64,000 nt of DNA from IMG/VR virus record IMGVR_UViG_3300030019_000008. One strand, 5' to 3'. How positions within the stretch are numbered: the first letter of the stretch is position 1; the number at the start of each line of letters is the position of its first letter. The notes under the pieces were generated by a model. That model made no database searches. It was given only the letters and a program-made list of their open reading frames with translations, and had not been told where the DNA came from. Positions 6,552 to 56,574 of the stretch are shown here, in pieces. Source of the DNA: a virus. The translations under genes and the position numbers were made by a program.

Positions 6552-7778
6552 TTACCCGTAATGGCTCTTGGTATATGTGCGAGCCACCACATAGAGCATC
6601 AGACCCGTACGCACAGACGCGATAGTGTTCTTGTTCTTGTTACCCGTGGCCATGGTAACAATCGTCTCAGCCTGACTACGAATAGCAAACAACACTTCTT
6701 CTGTGGAACGGGAAGATGTGTAGACGCCCTTGATCTGAGAGAGCAATCCAGGGAGCTTGACAGAGTTGCGAACCAGAGACACATGGTCAGACAGATATGC
6801 AAAACTGTGCGTGAGCGTCTCGTCGACAAATGCAGTCACAAGCTGCGAGTTCTTCTGCTTGGAGTACTCCTCACTCACCCAGATCAAAGTCTCTCTGAAG
6901 AGCTTAGGAGGCATGGTATGAACGATGTTCTCGATCGTTGCTACCAACTCATCCTTGACAAAAGAAGCCTGATCCCCCAGAACAGAGAAGATGTACTGCT
7001 TGTAGTTGGCCAGGCCCTTGACACGATCCTTGAGCACAGAGCTGCCATCGAACTCCACTAAGTCAGACGAAGATGTGATCTTCACGCCGCTTCTGTGAAC
7101 ATCTCGGAATACCGTATAGATGTTCTTGACCATGTCACGGATACGACCCTGGGAATCATTGACCACACCCACGAGTTCCTTGTCATCATTCATCTTGGAA
7201 ATGACGGAGAACTTCTTACCTTCCCGACTGGTGATGTCACAAGCACGGTTGTAGAGCACGTTATACCAAGTGCCATACTGTTTGATGGCGAACTTGTTGG
7301 ACAAGGATACATAGGTAGCCTCAGCCACACTCTCTTCAGCAGGATAGATGAAGTGCCTAACAATACGACTGGTGATGTACCGGTAGTTGAGCACGAGCAT
7401 CACATCAATCATGCCGGCGTCTTTTTGCTTGTCAGAGAGCTTGTGTGAATTCCAGATGGCGTGTGCCAACCAAAAACACGAGAGGTTGAATGCATCGCTG
7501 GAGACGTTGTACTCGGGATTGATACCCGGCACTTCATCAATACGTTCTTTGAGCTCAACCTCATCTGCCTGAAGGATCTCATCGAACCAACGATTGTTGT
7601 CAGTGGGAGTGAAGCGCACGCGCTGTACTCCCAGCACATGCCCGCCGAAGAATGATGCGTGTTCTTCATTCTTACTTACGAAGCCTACCTGATAAGCGTT
7701 CAGGCGCTTCAGAAAGTTCTGATTGATATCCAAATCAGAACAGACGTCATCAAAAACGTCCCTAACTAGTTTATCCAT
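6552..7778 (-). CDS. Conserved jumbo-phage protein of unknown function
   Basis: 408-aa ORF; N-terminus (HASFFGGHVLGVQRVRF...WFDEIL) resembles a protein recalled from phiKZ-like phages. Confidence 0.65.
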   Translation of the reverse strand: MDKLVRDVFDDVCSDLDINQNFLKRLNAYQVGFVSKNEEHASFFGGHVLGVQRVRFTPTDNNRWFDEILQADEVELKERIDEVPGINPEYNVSSDAFNLSCFWLAHAIWNSHKLSDKQKDAGMIDVMLVLNYRYITSRIVRHFIYPAEESVAEATYVSLSNKFAIKQYGTWYNVLYNRACDITSREGKKFSVISKMNDDKELVGVVNDSQGRIRDMVKNIYTVFRDVHRSGVKITSSSDLVEFDGSSVLKDRVKGLANYKQYIFSVLGDQASFVKDELVATIENIVHTMPPKLFRETLIWVSEEYSKQKNSQLVTAFVDETLTHSFAYLSDHVSLVRNSVKLPGLLSQIKGVYTSSRSTEEVLFAIRSQAETIVTMATGNKNKNTIASVRTGLMLYVVARTYTKSHYG

Positions 7779-7817
7779 GGTAGTGTCCAGAAAAAAAAAG
7801 AGTATCTCAAACTATAG

Positions 7818-10452: not shown

Positions 10453-10468
10453 GTAATGAGTGTTTGAA
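10453..10468 (-). promoter_or_regulatory. Putative early promoter motif
   Basis: - strand ttcaaacactcattac. Confidence 0.65.
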
Positions 10469-11126: not shown

Positions 11127-11199
11127 GATATCATCCTGGTTAATGGTAGGGTATGGCTATCTGATATACTGTTCCTGTAAAAAGAAAATGCGGAGTAAC

Positions 11200-11232
11200 A
11201 CCAGGGATAGAGGCATAGCCTCTATCCCTGGT
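11200..11232. terminator. Hairpin (15-bp perfect stem)
   Basis: accagggatagaggc-ata-gcctctatccctggt. Confidence 0.6.
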
Positions 11233-11369
11233 CTCCCGTCACTTTCATGTGCTCAGCGATGTTACCGCCTGAGAAGCAGTTGGCTACTCTCCAGACTTGC
11301 ATCCTTATAGGCGATGCCAGACCCCAATGCGCGCAGTTCTCTGCATATGTATATACCTAAATACAAAAA

Positions 11370-11395
11370 AAAGACACCGGGTTAAGGGTGTCTTT
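11370..11395 (-). terminator. Rho-independent terminator
   Basis: aaagacacc...ggtgtcttt with an adjacent A-run (U-tail on - strand) just after the 11400-11618 ORF. Confidence 0.6.
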
Positions 11396-11399
11396 GATT

Positions 11400-14765: not shown

Positions 14766-15173
14766 CTAGAGATTAATATTGGCGAAGTGAAGGCTGCTGA
14801 TTGGGTAGCATATGAAGAACTCATCAGCAGTAACGCACTCGGCCTGCTTATCGAGCCAAAGCCCCATGACCAGTTCAGCCATGGCTAGTTTCACATAGTC
14901 GGCTTGCCTGCCAACGATGTTGAACTCAAGCACAGACTCGCTGGTTTTCATTGCCTTGTATTTGAAAGTGGTTTCATCGTGTTCTTTTTCATAGAACGAG
15001 ATGTATCCCAGTTTCTCAGCAGTGGCGGCATCGCTCACATACAGAGAACTACTGATGGAAACACCAGAACGACCAGACGGGCAAACCACATCGCGACTGT
15101 CATCATCACAGCCGTGATTGAGAACATAAGTGCCACCCGCTGCATCCATAGTCATCATGCAAAACTTATCCAT
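14766..15173 (-). CDS. Hypothetical protein, divergent member of paralog family A
   Basis: YVLNHGCDDDSR and YVKLAMAELVMGLWLDKQ align to YVMVHNTDDDSR and YVCLAKLEMLACIARDQQ; start after AAGGAG. Confidence 0.7.
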   Translation of the reverse strand: MDKFCMMTMDAAGGTYVLNHGCDDDSRDVVCPSGRSGVSISSSLYVSDAATAEKLGYISFYEKEHDETTFKYKAMKTSESVLEFNIVGRQADYVKLAMAELVMGLWLDKQAECVTADEFFICYPISSLHFANINL

Positions 15174-16004: not shown

Positions 16005-16040
16005 CTCAGCTAGTAGAAGAAGCTTCTTCTACTAGCTGAG
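16005..16040. repeat. Perfect 36-bp palindrome without spacer
   Basis: ctcagctagtagaagaag|cttcttctactagctgag. Confidence 0.95.
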
Positions 16041-16443
16041 CTGTTGATCTGCGAAACATGGTTTCTGTTTCATTATAGGCTATGCACTGAGCCAGGTACG
16101 CTTTGACCTTAAAGTATCCGGTCTTAAAGAGTGATTTGAACTGGAGCTCGTATAACGACTCACCCAGTCCCAATTGTTCATGCAGGATCTTTACGGAATT
16201 GAATCCAAACCCCACAACCCCGGTATGCCTATCCAGACACAAGTACTCTTCCATAACCCGATGTTCATGGGGGTTGGGGGCATAAGTGACATAATGAGAC
16301 AGAAACGTGACGCATTCAAAAAATGTCTTAATTCGGTGATCCTTGGTAATCTTCCTACACTGTGCTTCAATCTCACTGCTATTTGTGTCATCCCAGAATG
16401 GACCCTTGTCTTTCCATTCTATCCGAAACACTAAGGCATCCAT
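16006..16443 (-). CDS. Hypothetical protein
   Basis: 145-aa ORF with AGGAG RBS. Confidence 0.7.
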   Translation of the reverse strand: MDALVFRIEWKDKGPFWDDTNSSEIEAQCRKITKDHRIKTFFECVTFLSHYVTYAPNPHEHRVMEEYLCLDRHTGVVGFGFNSVKILHEQLGLGESLYELQFKSLFKTGYFKVKAYLAQCIAYNETETMFRRSTAQLVEEASSTS

Positions 16444-16469: not shown

Positions 16470-16748
16470 TTACGCCGAGTTCTTGAGATGAAGTTCGTAG
16501 TAGTGATTCACCTTTTGTTTCTTGGCTTCAACTACGTCATTGTCGCACCTATCAATCAGACCAAGTTCAATGCACTGCTCGATGGCTGCATAGAGGTGAT
16601 TGATTTCTTCAGTGAGCTCTTCCCGATTCGTGTTACCGGTAGCCGGGTTGATAGACCTCGGCCCGAACTCCATCATCTTGGCAGCTGCTTTACCAATCTC
16701 GTCTGACTCTTCACGAAGTTTGTGAAGGAAGAATTCTTGCTTGTTCAT
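16470..16748 (-). CDS. MazG-like nucleoside triphosphate pyrophosphohydrolase
   Basis: KLREESDEIGKAAAKMMEFG...NREELTEEINHL resembles the EExxE...ELxxE MazG/all-alpha NTP-PPase pattern; start at MNKQ after AGGA. Confidence 0.6.
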   Translation of the reverse strand: MNKQEFFLHKLREESDEIGKAAAKMMEFGPRSINPATGNTNREELTEEINHLYAAIEQCIELGLIDRCDNDVVEAKKQKVNHYYELHLKNSA

Positions 16749-16780
16749 TTGAGTTATTCCTATTTGACGGCAAAAAAGAA

Positions 16781-16806
16781 TCACCAGGGGAACAATCCCC
16801 TGGTGA
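16781..16806 (-). terminator. Rho-independent terminator closing the candidate ncRNA
   Basis: tcaccagggga-acaa-tcccctggtga followed on the - strand by ttcttttttg. Confidence 0.8.
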
Positions 16807-16810
16807 CCCT

Positions 16811-17529
16811 ACCCCACCACACCACTTCAACAGCACTCTCGGATTGAAGTCAGGTCGGCTACCCGACATTCTCACCGGCAATGTTGTCATTCCGACATTC
16901 ACTACTTGTAGTGCAGGCTTTTAGCATCTACCAATGCGCTCTCTCAGAGAGTATTAAGTGCACCTGCTCACTATCCCAGACTCAGGCACTGGGATATTCC
17001 CGTACTCTGGATGTCTAGACACCCAACTGTCCCACTACGACTTTAAAGTAAGCCTGAGAGAACAAGAGTGGGATTCTTAGATCTCTCAATGTGGTGCCGA
17101 ACCATGGCTATTACTATCTCGACCCCCAGTGCAATCCATTTACCAAATGCCACTGACCAGATGTTAGTCAGTACCACGTCGATGCGGTAGTGGGATTGCT
17201 ATAGGCTCTGTTAGCCTGCCTATCGCCTAAGATATATGCAGCGGCGGTGTCTCTACGCTGGCTTTTAACCAACCTGGAAGTGACGCTGCACCATCATGAG
17301 CGAATCTCGAAGTTATTATCGGATCGATCCTCAAAAAGAAGACCTCACCGGCAATAACCTGCTACTGTTTCTGCCAAAGGCTGATCACAGGTGTAATGCT
17401 AACGGTATAGAGACCGCTGGCCCATTGTTCACTCATCACTCCAATGCTCAGACATCGCGCCCCCAACGGCGCAAGTGCAACATTTCTGGTTTCCCGTATT
17501 GCACCGCATCCTAAGCAATGGCAGTGAGA
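16811..17529 (-). ncRNA. Candidate large structured ncRNA (~720 nt; ROOL/GOLLD-like or novel)
   Basis: No credible ORF; 5' and 3' ends pair with G-U wobbles; several long-range 7-9 bp helices and many local hairpins; terminator immediately downstream. Confidence 0.65.
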
Positions 17530-17530
17530 C

Positions 17531-17569
17531 AGCGCCTGTTAGTGAAAGGACAAAAGCCTAACAGGCGCT
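17531..17569. other. 12-bp perfect hairpin abutting the 5' end of the candidate ncRNA
   Basis: agcgcctgttag...ctaacaggcgct. Confidence 0.7.
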
Positions 17570-17622
17570 TATGAGTGTTCTTCCTTCAATGGATAGCTCC
17601 ACCGAATAATTTTTTACTGAGG

Positions 17623-17868
17623 TCAATCGTAATCGATCTCGACACTACATTCTTTCGCGACTTGGGCAAGGGTATTGTCCATGTCCTTAATGCGGTTTCC
17701 TGTCCTGGTAAGATTGCTCTTCACCACCACATCATGCATGCACATCGTTGCATCGATCTCATTGCGTTCTTCGACATAGTTCTTCATCGAGCAAGAGATT
17801 GCTATGACAGTGAGTACACAGAAAGTGAGTGCTGCGATAGTGGTGGCACTGAAACGCTTAGTCGTCAC
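17623..17868 (-). CDS. Small membrane-anchored or secreted protein
   Basis: N-terminal hydrophobic helix TIAALTFCVLTVIAISC; GGAG RBS. Confidence 0.65.
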   Translation of the reverse strand: MTTKRFSATTIAALTFCVLTVIAISCSMKNYVEERNEIDATMCMHDVVVKSNLTRTGNRIKDMDNTLAQVAKECSVEIDYD

Positions 17869-17947: not shown

Positions 17948-17973
17948 GTAATGAGTGTTTGAAATGTTTTAGC
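17948..17973 (-). promoter_or_regulatory. Putative early promoter motif
   Basis: - strand gctaaaacatttcaaacactcattac. Confidence 0.7.
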
Positions 17974-18384: not shown

Positions 18385-18418
18385 AACTTCTAAACTCCAA
18401 AAAAAGAAAATGGATGGG

Positions 18419-18456
18419 ATATAGACTACTGCACATACGAGTGCAGTAGTCTATAT
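18419..18456. terminator. Hairpin (16-bp perfect stem)
   Basis: atatagactactgcac-atacga-gtgcagtagtctatat. Confidence 0.65.
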
Positions 18457-18458
18457 TT

Positions 18459-20023: not shown

Positions 20024-20072
20024 TTCTATGTTCCTTTGTTAAAAGGTCCGAGACTAAAACAGTCTCACAAGA

Positions 20073-20092
20073 GTAATAAGTGATTGTAGAAA
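20073..20092 (-). promoter_or_regulatory. Putative early promoter motif (degenerate)
   Basis: - strand tttctacaatcacttattac. Confidence 0.5.
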
Positions 20093-20121
20093 TCTACAGC
20101 AAAAAAAATGCGGCATAGGAC

Positions 20122-20157
20122 GTATCTAGCTAGAGGGAAATCCCTCTAGCTAGATAC
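20122..20157 (-). terminator. Terminator hairpin
   Basis: gtatctagctagaggg-aaat-ccctctagctagatac; A8 at 20101-20108. Confidence 0.75.
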
Positions 20158-20179
20158 TATCGACTATTGTCCGAGTCGC

Positions 20180-27697: not shown

Positions 27698-27725
27698 GTA
27701 ATGTATGTTTGAAATACTTTTGAGT
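27698..27725 (-). promoter_or_regulatory. Putative early promoter motif
   Basis: - strand ctcaaaaagtatttcaaacatacattac. Confidence 0.7.
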
Positions 27726-34969: not shown

Positions 34970-34998
34970 GTAATGTGTGTCTGAAATGTTTTAGAGCA
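34970..34998 (-). promoter_or_regulatory. Putative early promoter motif
   Basis: - strand tgctctaaaacatttcagacacacattac. Confidence 0.7.
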
Positions 34999-42664: not shown

Positions 42665-44287
42665 TTAACCCCGAGTCATATTACGGAATACGAAGTTGGT
42701 GGTGTCATTGCTCACAGATGCGATAAAGTGACCGTCGGTTCCGATGTACGCTTTGCGCTTATGAAGAAACTCGTGAGCTTCTTCAATAGTGTCGTCAGCA
42801 TAGCCGCCAGAACCAGACAGGGTGTCTCCATCGAAGTCAGCACCCAGGCCAGTGAGCTTACTGGAGTGCGGAATCTGTGTATTCACAAAGGAAGACTTCG
42901 TAGGAAATGCCAGGGCTGTAAATTCTTCACCCATAGGCTCCCACGAATCACTGAGCTCTTGCCTGACCTCAGAGCGGTTTGTCGGCTTGAGATAGACCAA
43001 AGACGGATAGATACTACCAATACCCGTAATCGGATACCGAGTCACATAGAACGGGAACTTGTTCGTCTGCTGATAAATAGAGCAGTAGAAGAGTTCCGTA
43101 TACGTAATAGGCTCAACCAGTGTTTTGTCCAGCTCAGGAGGAACATCGTCGATGTCGTTGATGACCTTGAAAGTTCCATCCTTACCTTTATAGATCAGCG
43201 CCAGGTAATGGCTGTTGATCATCACGGGTCTGTGACGGATGTCTTCATTCTCGTAGATGTTGAAGAGCTGTTCCATGCCGGTGTTACTTGTCCAGGCATC
43301 GAAGACTTCGACACGTACCTTAACTGGCTCAGACTTGAGAGTCTTTGTGTTGACCAGATTGACAGGTTGGTCTTTTGTTACGAAGATCTTGGAGACGTAC
43401 TTATTTCGCACCATGTAAACCGTCTTCGGTAGGAAGGCCCTCAGGGCTTGGTACAGACCAATGACGGTATTGTTAAAGCGCACATTCTCAGGAGCACCCA
43501 GTTCTCGAGCAGTGGTATCCATACTGGAAGCCACGTTACGCGTTGTATTGAAGATACGTCTCGTAGCCCACTTACCCAGGATCAACTTGTGCTTACCGTT
43601 GACCATGTTTTCGAGCATCTCGTAGATCTGATTGAATGTCAATTGCAGAGTCAGACGTGATCTATCGATGATCTCAGGGTTGTTCCGAATAGCGGCTTCT
43701 GTGATGATGGATGAGACATTGATCAGCTTTCTGTAGAGCGGATTGATCTCATGCTCTTCAGTACGACCTCCACGAGTGATCTCCACATCTCGAATACCAG
43801 CTGGGATCACAATGATCTTATCGATCATCGCGTCATCAGCATACTTTTCAAGTAGCGAAATCATCTGGTTGCGGATATCGCTTTTGTTTCTTTGGAATTT
43901 GATCTCACGCCAGTGCTCAACAAAGAAGTTGAATCCAGTCATGCCATTGAGAGCTGTTGCTCTTTCGAAATCGGTAATGGCAGGATTCCAGATTGCAAAC
44001 TCTTTGCCGGTGATAATGTCCGCATAAAAGCCGCGCAGACGCTCAAAGCACTTGTAGATGATCGGGTGAAAGATCTTGACTTTGATGTCGATGTAGGAGA
44101 AGCGCCTGTTACGGACCTTGTCTCCCACACGACCAAAAATGGAAGTAGAAAACAATCCATCTTCATGGAAGTTAGTTCCACTACCACCTTGGTAGATATC
44201 GGAAACACGAATAGGTTTTAGTCCCCTCAAGTCGTCTGGTGTAGGATCAAGCAGCTCGACATTGAACGGAATATTCAGATTTGACAT
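42665..44287 (-). CDS. Virion RNA polymerase beta'-like catalytic subunit (phiKZ gp180-like)
   Basis: EDGLFSTSIFG, VIPAGIRD, TRYP and the catalytic GADFDGD motif. Confidence 0.93.
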   Translation of the reverse strand: MSNLNIPFNVELLDPTPDDLRGLKPIRVSDIYQGGSGTNFHEDGLFSTSIFGRVGDKVRNRRFSYIDIKVKIFHPIIYKCFERLRGFYADIITGKEFAIWNPAITDFERATALNGMTGFNFFVEHWREIKFQRNKSDIRNQMISLLEKYADDAMIDKIIVIPAGIRDVEITRGGRTEEHEINPLYRKLINVSSIITEAAIRNNPEIIDRSRLTLQLTFNQIYEMLENMVNGKHKLILGKWATRRIFNTTRNVASSMDTTARELGAPENVRFNNTVIGLYQALRAFLPKTVYMVRNKYVSKIFVTKDQPVNLVNTKTLKSEPVKVRVEVFDAWTSNTGMEQLFNIYENEDIRHRPVMINSHYLALIYKGKDGTFKVINDIDDVPPELDKTLVEPITYTELFYCSIYQQTNKFPFYVTRYPITGIGSIYPSLVYLKPTNRSEVRQELSDSWEPMGEEFTALAFPTKSSFVNTQIPHSSKLTGLGADFDGDTLSGSGGYADDTIEEAHEFLHKRKAYIGTDGHFIASVSNDTTNFVFRNMTRG

Positions 44288-54880: not shown

Positions 54881-54953
54881 TATGAACCTCTCTGGGATCA
54901 ATGATTTAGTCAAATGATTGACCCAAAGGGCAAAAAAAGAAATAAGCTCATAC

Positions 54954-54991
54954 CCATACCACCTAGAGACACATGTCTCTAGGTGGTATGG
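54954..54991 (-). terminator. Terminator hairpin
   Basis: ccataccacctagagac-acat-gtctctaggtggtatgg; A-run at ~54932-54938. Confidence 0.7.
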
Positions 54992-55000
54992 AATGGGTAC

Positions 55001-56545: not shown

Positions 56546-56574
56546 GTAATGAGTGTTTGAAAAAACTTAGAGCA
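56546..56574 (-). promoter_or_regulatory. Putative early promoter motif
   Basis: - strand tgctctaagttttttcaaacactcattac. Confidence 0.7.

Follow-up and report, generated by a model that had tools for sequence, protein, structure and literature searches.

ROOL and GOLLD RNAs stem mostly from Firmicutes, Actinobacteria and marine samples. They are encoded by phages and prophages, often near tRNA islands, and they form multimeric RNA-only cages (PMC12286853). The putative RNA described here resembles them in being phage-encoded, non-coding and multi-domain and in falling within the size range 0.6-0.8 kb. It differs in giving no covariance-model match, in not being located near tRNA genes and in occurring in phiKZ-like phages, the nearest cultured relatives of which infect Burkholderia and Ralstonia.

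For the phages phiKZ and 201phi2-1, small RNAs derived from 5' UTRs, from 3' UTRs and from intergenic regions have been reported (PMC8244752, PMC11512511). They belong to the same phage group as the locus considered here and, like the putative RNA, they are non-coding, are linked to mRNA units and have intrinsic terminators as their boundaries, but the 201phi2-1 candidates were selected as being <250 nt, whereas the present RNA would extend over ~800 nt with conserved multi-hairpin domains. No large structured RNA has been described for phiKZ, 201phi2-1 or other Chimalliviridae in the literature searched. Among bacterial sRNAs derived from 3' UTRs, CpxQ and SroC are released by RNase E, for which the usual cleavage context is an A/U-rich single strand preceding a stable hairpin. 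The present locus is similar in that the RNA would begin directly after a stop codon, would use the terminator of the mRNA and carries an A/U-rich stretch before a stable hairpin; it differs in being about ten times larger, and no seed-target pairing was identified for it.

The window analysed, to which all coordinates refer unless stated otherwise, is a stretch of 64,000 nucleotides from the IMG/VR record IMGVR_UViG_3300030019_000008. With a probability of roughly 0.6, its region ~17617-16771 on the minus strand encodes a structured non-coding RNA, roughly 0.8 kb in size, of a previously undescribed family that is so far known from two lineages of uncultured phiKZ-like jumbo phages. The features of the locus are listed below in the 5' to 3' direction of the minus strand.

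17948-17963, minus strand: promoter-like motif TTCAAACACTCATTAC, a recurrent motif, upstream of the 81-aa gene
17623-17868, minus strand: gene for an 81-aa protein with an N-terminal hydrophobic segment (homolog P0005)
17578-17617, minus strand: leader block GTAAAAAA..TAT..TATCCATTGAAG..AGAA, directly 3' of the stop codon of the 81-aa gene
17531-17569, minus strand: P1, a 12-bp hairpin (arms 17569-17558 and 17542-17531) with a 15-nt pyrimidine-rich loop (17557-17543)
17431-17530, minus strand: variable region, ~45 nt longer than in the relative, which holds the 5' closing arm proposed in the earlier note
17311-17430, minus strand: core domain of 120 nt with three hairpins
17055-17148, minus strand: central conserved block AUUUGGUAAAUG..CACUGG..AGAUAGU together with hairpin 17087-17077/17065-17058
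16817-16917, minus strand: 3' domain, with an outer helix formed between 16917-16908 and the G/U-rich tail 16825-16817
16762-16810, minus strand: intrinsic terminator (stem 16810-16777 followed by a U-run) and conserved junction TTCTTTTTTGCCGTCAAAT (16780-16762)
16470-16748, minus strand: MazG-like pyrophosphohydrolase gene (phrog_4856, E 2e-14), downstream context outside the module

Source phage and gene-free region

Sequence similarity places the source, which is uncultured, among the phiKZ-like jumbo phages. Its RNAP beta' piece (42665-44287) shares 49% identity with the homologue of Burkholderia phage FLC9 and 43-46% with those of the Ralstonia phages RP12, RP31 and RSF1, and a total of 313 phiKZ-type phage records match RNAP beta'. 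Near-identical contigs (99.7-100%) of the source phage occur in several peat-type JGI metagenomes and in ENA/Logan assemblies, the longest extending over 214 kb; the samples include JGI 3300029923, 3300030339, 3300028743 and 3300029987, ENA ERZ272xxxxx and SRR8554885. Since the contigs bearing the 402-aa and MazG-like genes are 99.7-100% identical, they provide no useful variation for comparison.

All genes flanking the RNA region lie on the minus strand. Between the 81-aa gene and the MazG-like gene there is a gene-free stretch, 16785-17622, which is the largest gap in the 64-kb window, with 874 bases separating the stop codon of the former from the start of the latter; the earlier note was correct in singling it out as the largest gap without a credible gene. 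Each of the six reading frames is interrupted by 11-24 stops, and when the ten small ORFs present were compared with PHROG, no E value fell below 0.16. On none of the near-identical metagenome contigs did an independent gene caller place a gene in the gap, and no ORF within it was found to be common to the two lineages. The stretch is non-coding. The limits first proposed, 16811-17529 (~720 nt), located the region properly and its extent too narrowly: the unit reaches from ~17617 or 17569 to 16771, since the 5' hairpin and the terminator belong to it.

When folded as a single sequence, the minus strand of the region is more stable than shuffled controls, at z -4.1 to -4.7, while the plus strand yields z -0.17. 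The stability that the earlier note had claimed is thus present but is weaker evidence than was supposed, because coding controls on the same strand yield values of z -0.9 to -3.6 and a composition regression over 124 window positions on both strands (248 folds) did not reveal the region as an outlier; folding energy alone is therefore only suggestive. Such results would suit a decayed gene, a missed small-protein locus or a non-functional spacer that folds by accident, as would the observation that the minimum free energy fold is mostly not conserved. An origin of this kind is nevertheless extremely improbable in view of the density of stops and the lack of an ORF conserved between the lineages, of the retention of length and position at a level of divergence that has almost saturated third codon positions, and of a significant consensus structure in which many pairs have changed on both sides (see below).

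Several features of the neighbourhood were recorded in passing. The MazG-like protein (92 aa) covers only positions 84-163 of the 195-position phrog_4856 profile and constitutes a short single-domain form. Neither it nor the 402-aa protein has relatives other than itself among 5.8 billion proteins, the search for the MazG-like protein being based on shared words of five residues. Downstream of the MazG-like gene, the 145-aa gene 16006-16443 encodes 150 aa in two ENA contigs (L005/L008) because of a 6-nt indel and a few substitutions. Moreover, a 266-bp segment (14862-15127) is missing from the otherwise identical JGI contig Ga0311360_10013013 (L001/L006), with the loss of a 135-aa gene, and is a presence/absence polymorphism inside one phage population. 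Strong terminators consisting of a hairpin and a T-run were also seen directly before the ribosome-binding site of the next gene at 18385-18458, 54914-55000 and 20024-20179; some of these are followed by a gene with no recognisable promoter, which suggests either leaky terminators or an undetected short class of promoter.

The second lineage and the conserved module

The 81-aa protein matches no Pfam or PHROG family, and an exhaustive HMMER search among 1.84 billion representatives produced a sole relative, P0005 (E 4e-10), with an identity of 46% by search and 39% ungapped. P0005 is carried by L019 (145.6 kb) and L020, and its 90% cluster led to L071-L073; these five public SRA (Logan) assemblies constitute the second lineage, which occurs in the samples ERR15804830, SRR22681133, SRR23702487 and SRR2043641. 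They are syntenic with the window over a QueC-like gene, an NAD-dependent ligase, small genes, the 81-aa gene, a gap of ~0.8 kb and an intrinsic terminator, and only the 81-aa gene accompanies the RNA in each lineage. With nhmmer, window 17979-16749 aligns with L019 9905-11033 (E 1e-32). Identity between the lineages amounts to 50-53% in the gap region, as against 40% at third codon positions of the neighbouring gene, and the values of 50/63/40% at the three codon positions of the 81-aa gene represent a coding signature. Alignment of the two lineages shows that the RNA region has been kept at the same length and position though the flanking protein is only 39-46% identical.

The genes located beyond the terminator differ. 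The window carries a 5.3-kb block extending from the MazG-like to the 402-aa gene, L019, L020 and L073 carry a 44-aa ORF, and L071 carries genes for 138, 111 and 215 aa. As these downstream genes vary both between and within lineages, the conserved module comprises promoter, 81-aa gene, RNA and terminator, and the exclusion of the downstream genes from it argues against a leader or attenuator acting on them. The differing gene content, which spans window 16762-11400, L019 11013-11377 and L071 4020-5040, begins directly after the junction TTCTTTTTTGCCSTCAAAT, and the lineages become homologous again at the hairpin region that corresponds to window 11127-11399. Judged by this comparison, window 16762-11400 is a hot-spot of cassette exchange.

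The promoter-like motif that had been noticed near 17948 is a real recurrent element. Allowing <=3 mismatches, TTCAAACACTCATTAC has 8 matches where 0.64 are expected, every one of which is on the minus strand; six lie in intergenic spacers that precede minus-strand genes, and a diverged copy occurs at the equivalent place in L019. Exact copies are located at 10453-10468, 17948-17963 and 56546-56561, copies with 2-3 mismatches at 27698-27713, 34970-34985 and 20073-20088, and those lying in minus-strand spacers precede small hypothetical genes. The copy at 17963-17948 is the likely start of the transcription unit containing the RNA. Another motif, AGTAANAAAAT, shows no enrichment (4 matches, 3.2 expected), and the 9-mer AACACTCAT just upstream of P1 was considered as a second promoter and dropped because it is not conserved in the relative. 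No promoter belonging to the RNA itself was found between the stop codon of the 81-aa gene and P1, the recurrent motif occurring only upstream of the ORF.

This arrangement bears on whether the RNA would act independently of the message. It could instead be a cis-acting, structured and long 3' UTR of the 81-aa mRNA, which stabilises or regulates the message and insulates the variable downstream genes, with no independent trans RNA being formed. The lack of a conserved promoter between stop codon and P1, the invariable location behind the 81-aa gene with a common promoter and terminator, and the retention of the junction sequence next to downstream cassettes that vary all favour such a role, which we regard as possible but unlikely. 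About 0.8 kb of RNA, in which two multi-hairpin domains are separately conserved and a 15-nt loop is kept as well, greatly exceeds what stabilisation or termination needs, and it is three times longer than the ORF that it would serve. Moreover, the RNA is less variable than the ORF among close strains: the five strains of the second lineage differ at 10 sites over 766 nt of RNA, compared with 9 sites over the 246 nt of the adjacent 81-aa gene (Fisher p 0.028), and genes farther upstream show 87-96% identity. A functional RNA whose action extends past its own message appears rather probable.

Searches for additional homologs were negative within the databases covered. Distant-mode blastn against 50,697 phage records gave no match to the RNA region, nhmmer gave none in FLC9 1-45 kb, and window 8-35 kb shows no synteny with FLC9. 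In IMG/VR no relative was found via the flanking proteins, and RNAP beta' yielded only relatives at <=50% identity. Four conserved-block patterns produced zero or chance matches in IMG/VR, JGI metagenomes and GTDB genomes, with nhmmer negative on all, and no paralog of the RNA region occurs within the 64-kb window. When a covariance model of the core, R1, was run on the complete FLC9 genome and on 15 chimallivirus records from IMG/VR, it gave only one match (E 0.015), which falls within the coding sequence of gp43 and was taken as chance.

Phage FLC9 (L002, LC667451.1) has a 770-nt unannotated, gene-free stretch of its own at 7020-7789 (minus strand), which lies on the gene strand between gp10 and gp11, folds at z -7.06 and has a hairpin and a U-run at its 3' end. 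It showed no Rfam match, no similar sequence in any other phage record and no detectable homology to the RNA studied here; as part of the closest cultured relative it may provide a tractable analogue.

Conserved secondary structure

Evidence for structure came primarily from consensus folding of the two lineages. For the sequence-only MAFFT alignment, RNAalifold yielded -107.5 kcal/mol, compared with -62.7 +/- 6.1 for column shuffles (z -7.4), while the reverse complement gave z -1.0 and two 860-column pieces of the ligase gene, used as controls, z -2.7 and -0.7. A structure-aware alignment gave a similar result (z -7.7), with none of 259 shuffles reaching so low an energy, and the interior without P1 and the terminator retained z -6.1 in the forward and -0.4 in the reverse direction. 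The structure conservation index is 0.29. Single-sequence minimum free energy folds were rejected as a structural model because they do not transfer between the lineages: only 36-38% of the informative pairs are kept, the same as in slid controls. Covariation is assessed throughout by pairwise comparison, only two independent lineages being available.

Individual segments were examined against a null in which every shuffle was realigned. The core (17430-17311) reached z -7.3 and the 3' domain (~16917-16817) z -5.9 (0/40 shuffles), the central block as a segment gave a signal that is only marginal (z -2.0, 2/40 shuffles), and the remaining segments, about half of the RNA, showed no significant conserved local structure. 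Several of the kept pairs alternate between G-C or A-U and G-U, and this switching fits an RNA of the minus strand and not DNA. Comparison of the lineages thus shows a strand-specific secondary structure, kept through compensating changes, that comprises P1, the 120-nt core, the ~100-nt 3' domain and the terminator. In contrast to the codon pattern of the 81-aa gene, the RNA shows islands of near-identity, separated by indels, which include the leader GTAAAAAA..TATCCATTGAAG, the P1 loop, TGCCGRTGAGRTCTTCT..GAGGRTCGATYCGATA, ATTTGGYAARTG..CACTGG..AGATAGT and the junction TTCTTTTTTGCCSTCAAAT.

The strand specificity also bears on a possible role at the DNA level, as a replication origin, a packaging site or the boundary of a recombination hot-spot. 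The region is gene-free, rich in hairpins and situated at the edge of the cassette-swapping region, as might be expected for such an element. We consider the role very improbable, as the signal differs strongly between the strands (z -7.4 against -1.0 overall and -8.5 against -1.5 for the core in the MAFFT alignment) and G-U pairs would become A-C mismatches on the other strand. Furthermore, neither iterons nor tandem repeats appeared in a self-comparison, an A+T-rich tract for unwinding is absent from the G+C profile, and a promoter and an intrinsic terminator of the same strand flank the region.

At the 5' side of the proposed RNA, ~31 of the 40 positions of the leader block are identical between lineages that otherwise share ~50% identity, and TATCCATTGAAG is unique in the window. 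The block may form the 5' part of the RNA or serve for processing or binding; alternatively, it may be a promoter. The 12-bp hairpin P1, which the earlier note had recognised, forms all 12 pairs in both lineages, nine having changed on both sides and been kept, three being unchanged and none broken. It is not a canonical terminator since no U-run follows it. The loop is of equal length in the two lineages, with 10 of the 15 positions identical, and it ends in the invariant ...UCCUUUCA. It has no conserved intramolecular partner, the best duplex sites lying at non-homologous positions, and an external partner is therefore more likely. As a lead only, UCCUUUC resembles the 3' tail of 16S rRNA and could complement the GAAAGGA-type ribosome-binding sites seen in the phage.

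The variable region that follows (17431-17530) has no conserved consensus structure (z +1.3 and -0.25) and contains large indels in both alignments. Closure of the RNA by pairing of its 5' and 3' ends, as first proposed, exists in the source sequence but is not kept in the relative, and the minimum free energy fold leaves the ends unclosed. Much the same applies to the long-range helices suggested at the same time: LR1, LR2 and LR3 form 8/8, 9/9 and 7/7 pairs in the source sequence but only 0-5 at the aligned positions of the relative, and LR4 is poor even in the source sequence, with 3/11 pairs.

None of the 29 pairs of the core is lost in either lineage. Eight have changed on both sides and four on one, whereas controls slid along the alignment were 21-54% paired with 0-1 double changes; the pair count leans toward structure, the structure having been derived from the same two sequences. 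Besides TTGCCGGTGAG at 17354-17344, the third hairpin of the core contains an apical stem of 7 bp and a UGA/GAU internal loop. In the central block, several pairs of the hairpin 17087-17077/17065-17058 have changed on both sides, and UUGGUA has an ambiguous partner, either local (17123-17119) or distal (16880-16875).

Two elements lie inside the outer helix of the 3' domain, namely a small hairpin at 16897-16885 and, at 16881-16871, another TTGCCGGTGAG module with an apical hairpin (16867-16849). The 25 consensus pairs of this domain include 15 that are the same in the two lineages, six changed on one side and four on both. The 11-mer TTGCCGGTGAG has two copies in the 64 kb, where 0.12 would be expected, and both lie within the RNA; moreover, the core model R1 weakly matches the 3' domain (13.3 bits, E 0.08-0.16). 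This weak match suggests an internally repeated module consisting of a stem, a CCG/CGG helix, an internal loop and an apical hairpin.

The terminator that had been noted after the RNA was borne out by the analysis; its stem of 15 pairs is followed by TTTTTTG and it is the strongest such site in window 12-22 kb. The terminator of the relative differs in the sequence of its stem, while its architecture and the junction are unchanged. Overall, the proposal of a large structured non-coding RNA on the minus strand of a phiKZ-like jumbo phage is supported, both by the RNAP beta' identity to FLC9 and by the conserved structure.

Known RNA families and proposed mechanism

Over the whole 64 kb, Rfam 15 yielded no match at gathering score to ROOL (RF03087), GOLLD (RF01998), OLE, raiA or HEARO. 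A scan with relaxed filters and E <= 10, covering window 16600-17750 and L019 9900-11377, produced for both lineages only sub-threshold models of miRNA hairpins, which are spurious, and of the bacterial sRNAs AbsR25 and IsrM over the terminator. From the lack of Rfam 15 matches, the RNA is not ROOL or GOLLD; the resemblance to ROOL that the earlier note had proposed found no support in either lineage, while its suggestion of a new RNA class is in line with the family being apparently new. Models of self-cleaving ribozymes (hammerhead, twister, pistol and hatchet) gave no match at E <= 10 on either strand of either lineage, and ARAGORN detected no tRNA in the 64-kb window. Group I and group II introns were considered and rejected: there is no model match, the flanks are two unrelated complete genes, and the downstream gene differs in the relatives.

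Even with no sequence membership of either family, the RNA could function in the manner of ROOL or GOLLD, by self-assembling into a multimeric RNA-only particle. Its size of ~0.8 kb, phage origin, multi-domain fold and internally repeated module are all compatible with this. It is nevertheless improbable, since neither lineage matches ROOL, GOLLD, OLE or raiA at E <= 10, no tRNA accompanies the locus in the window and no conserved self-complementary loop was identified.

For a functional RNA acting beyond its own message, the following mechanism can be envisaged. Transcription would start at the TTCAAACACTCATTAC-type promoter (17963-17948), run through the gene for the 81-aa membrane protein and the RNA, and end at the intrinsic terminator. 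The RNA might then be released by a cut in the conserved leader, which is A/U-rich and follows the stop codon, with P1 and the terminator hairpin capping and protecting its ends and possibly allowing stable accumulation. It would probably serve as a binding platform for a protein or another RNA, the likeliest contact surfaces being the pyrimidine loop of P1, which is invariant, and the two UUGCCGRUGAG modules.

A bolder proposal, which we would put forward only as doubtful, is that the RNA founds a class of its own, made up of large "ornate" RNAs specific to nucleus-forming jumbo phages, and is produced early together with the small membrane protein and acts in trans on the host. It might do so either via the loop resembling the 16S tail (UCCUUUCA), by capturing Shine-Dalgarno-type sequences or a host RNA-binding protein, or by forming a higher-order particle like those of ROOL and GOLLD.

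The value of the finding is limited for now, with the phage uncultured and two lineages only. Large structured RNAs such as ROOL, GOLLD and OLE are rare and their functions constitute a long-standing open question. The RNA described here marks a conserved boundary beside a hot-spot of gene-cassette exchange. A conserved 0.8-kb RNA that is tied to a small membrane protein, in a region of the host-takeover type, would be a new player in nucleus-forming phages, in which RNA must work across compartments.
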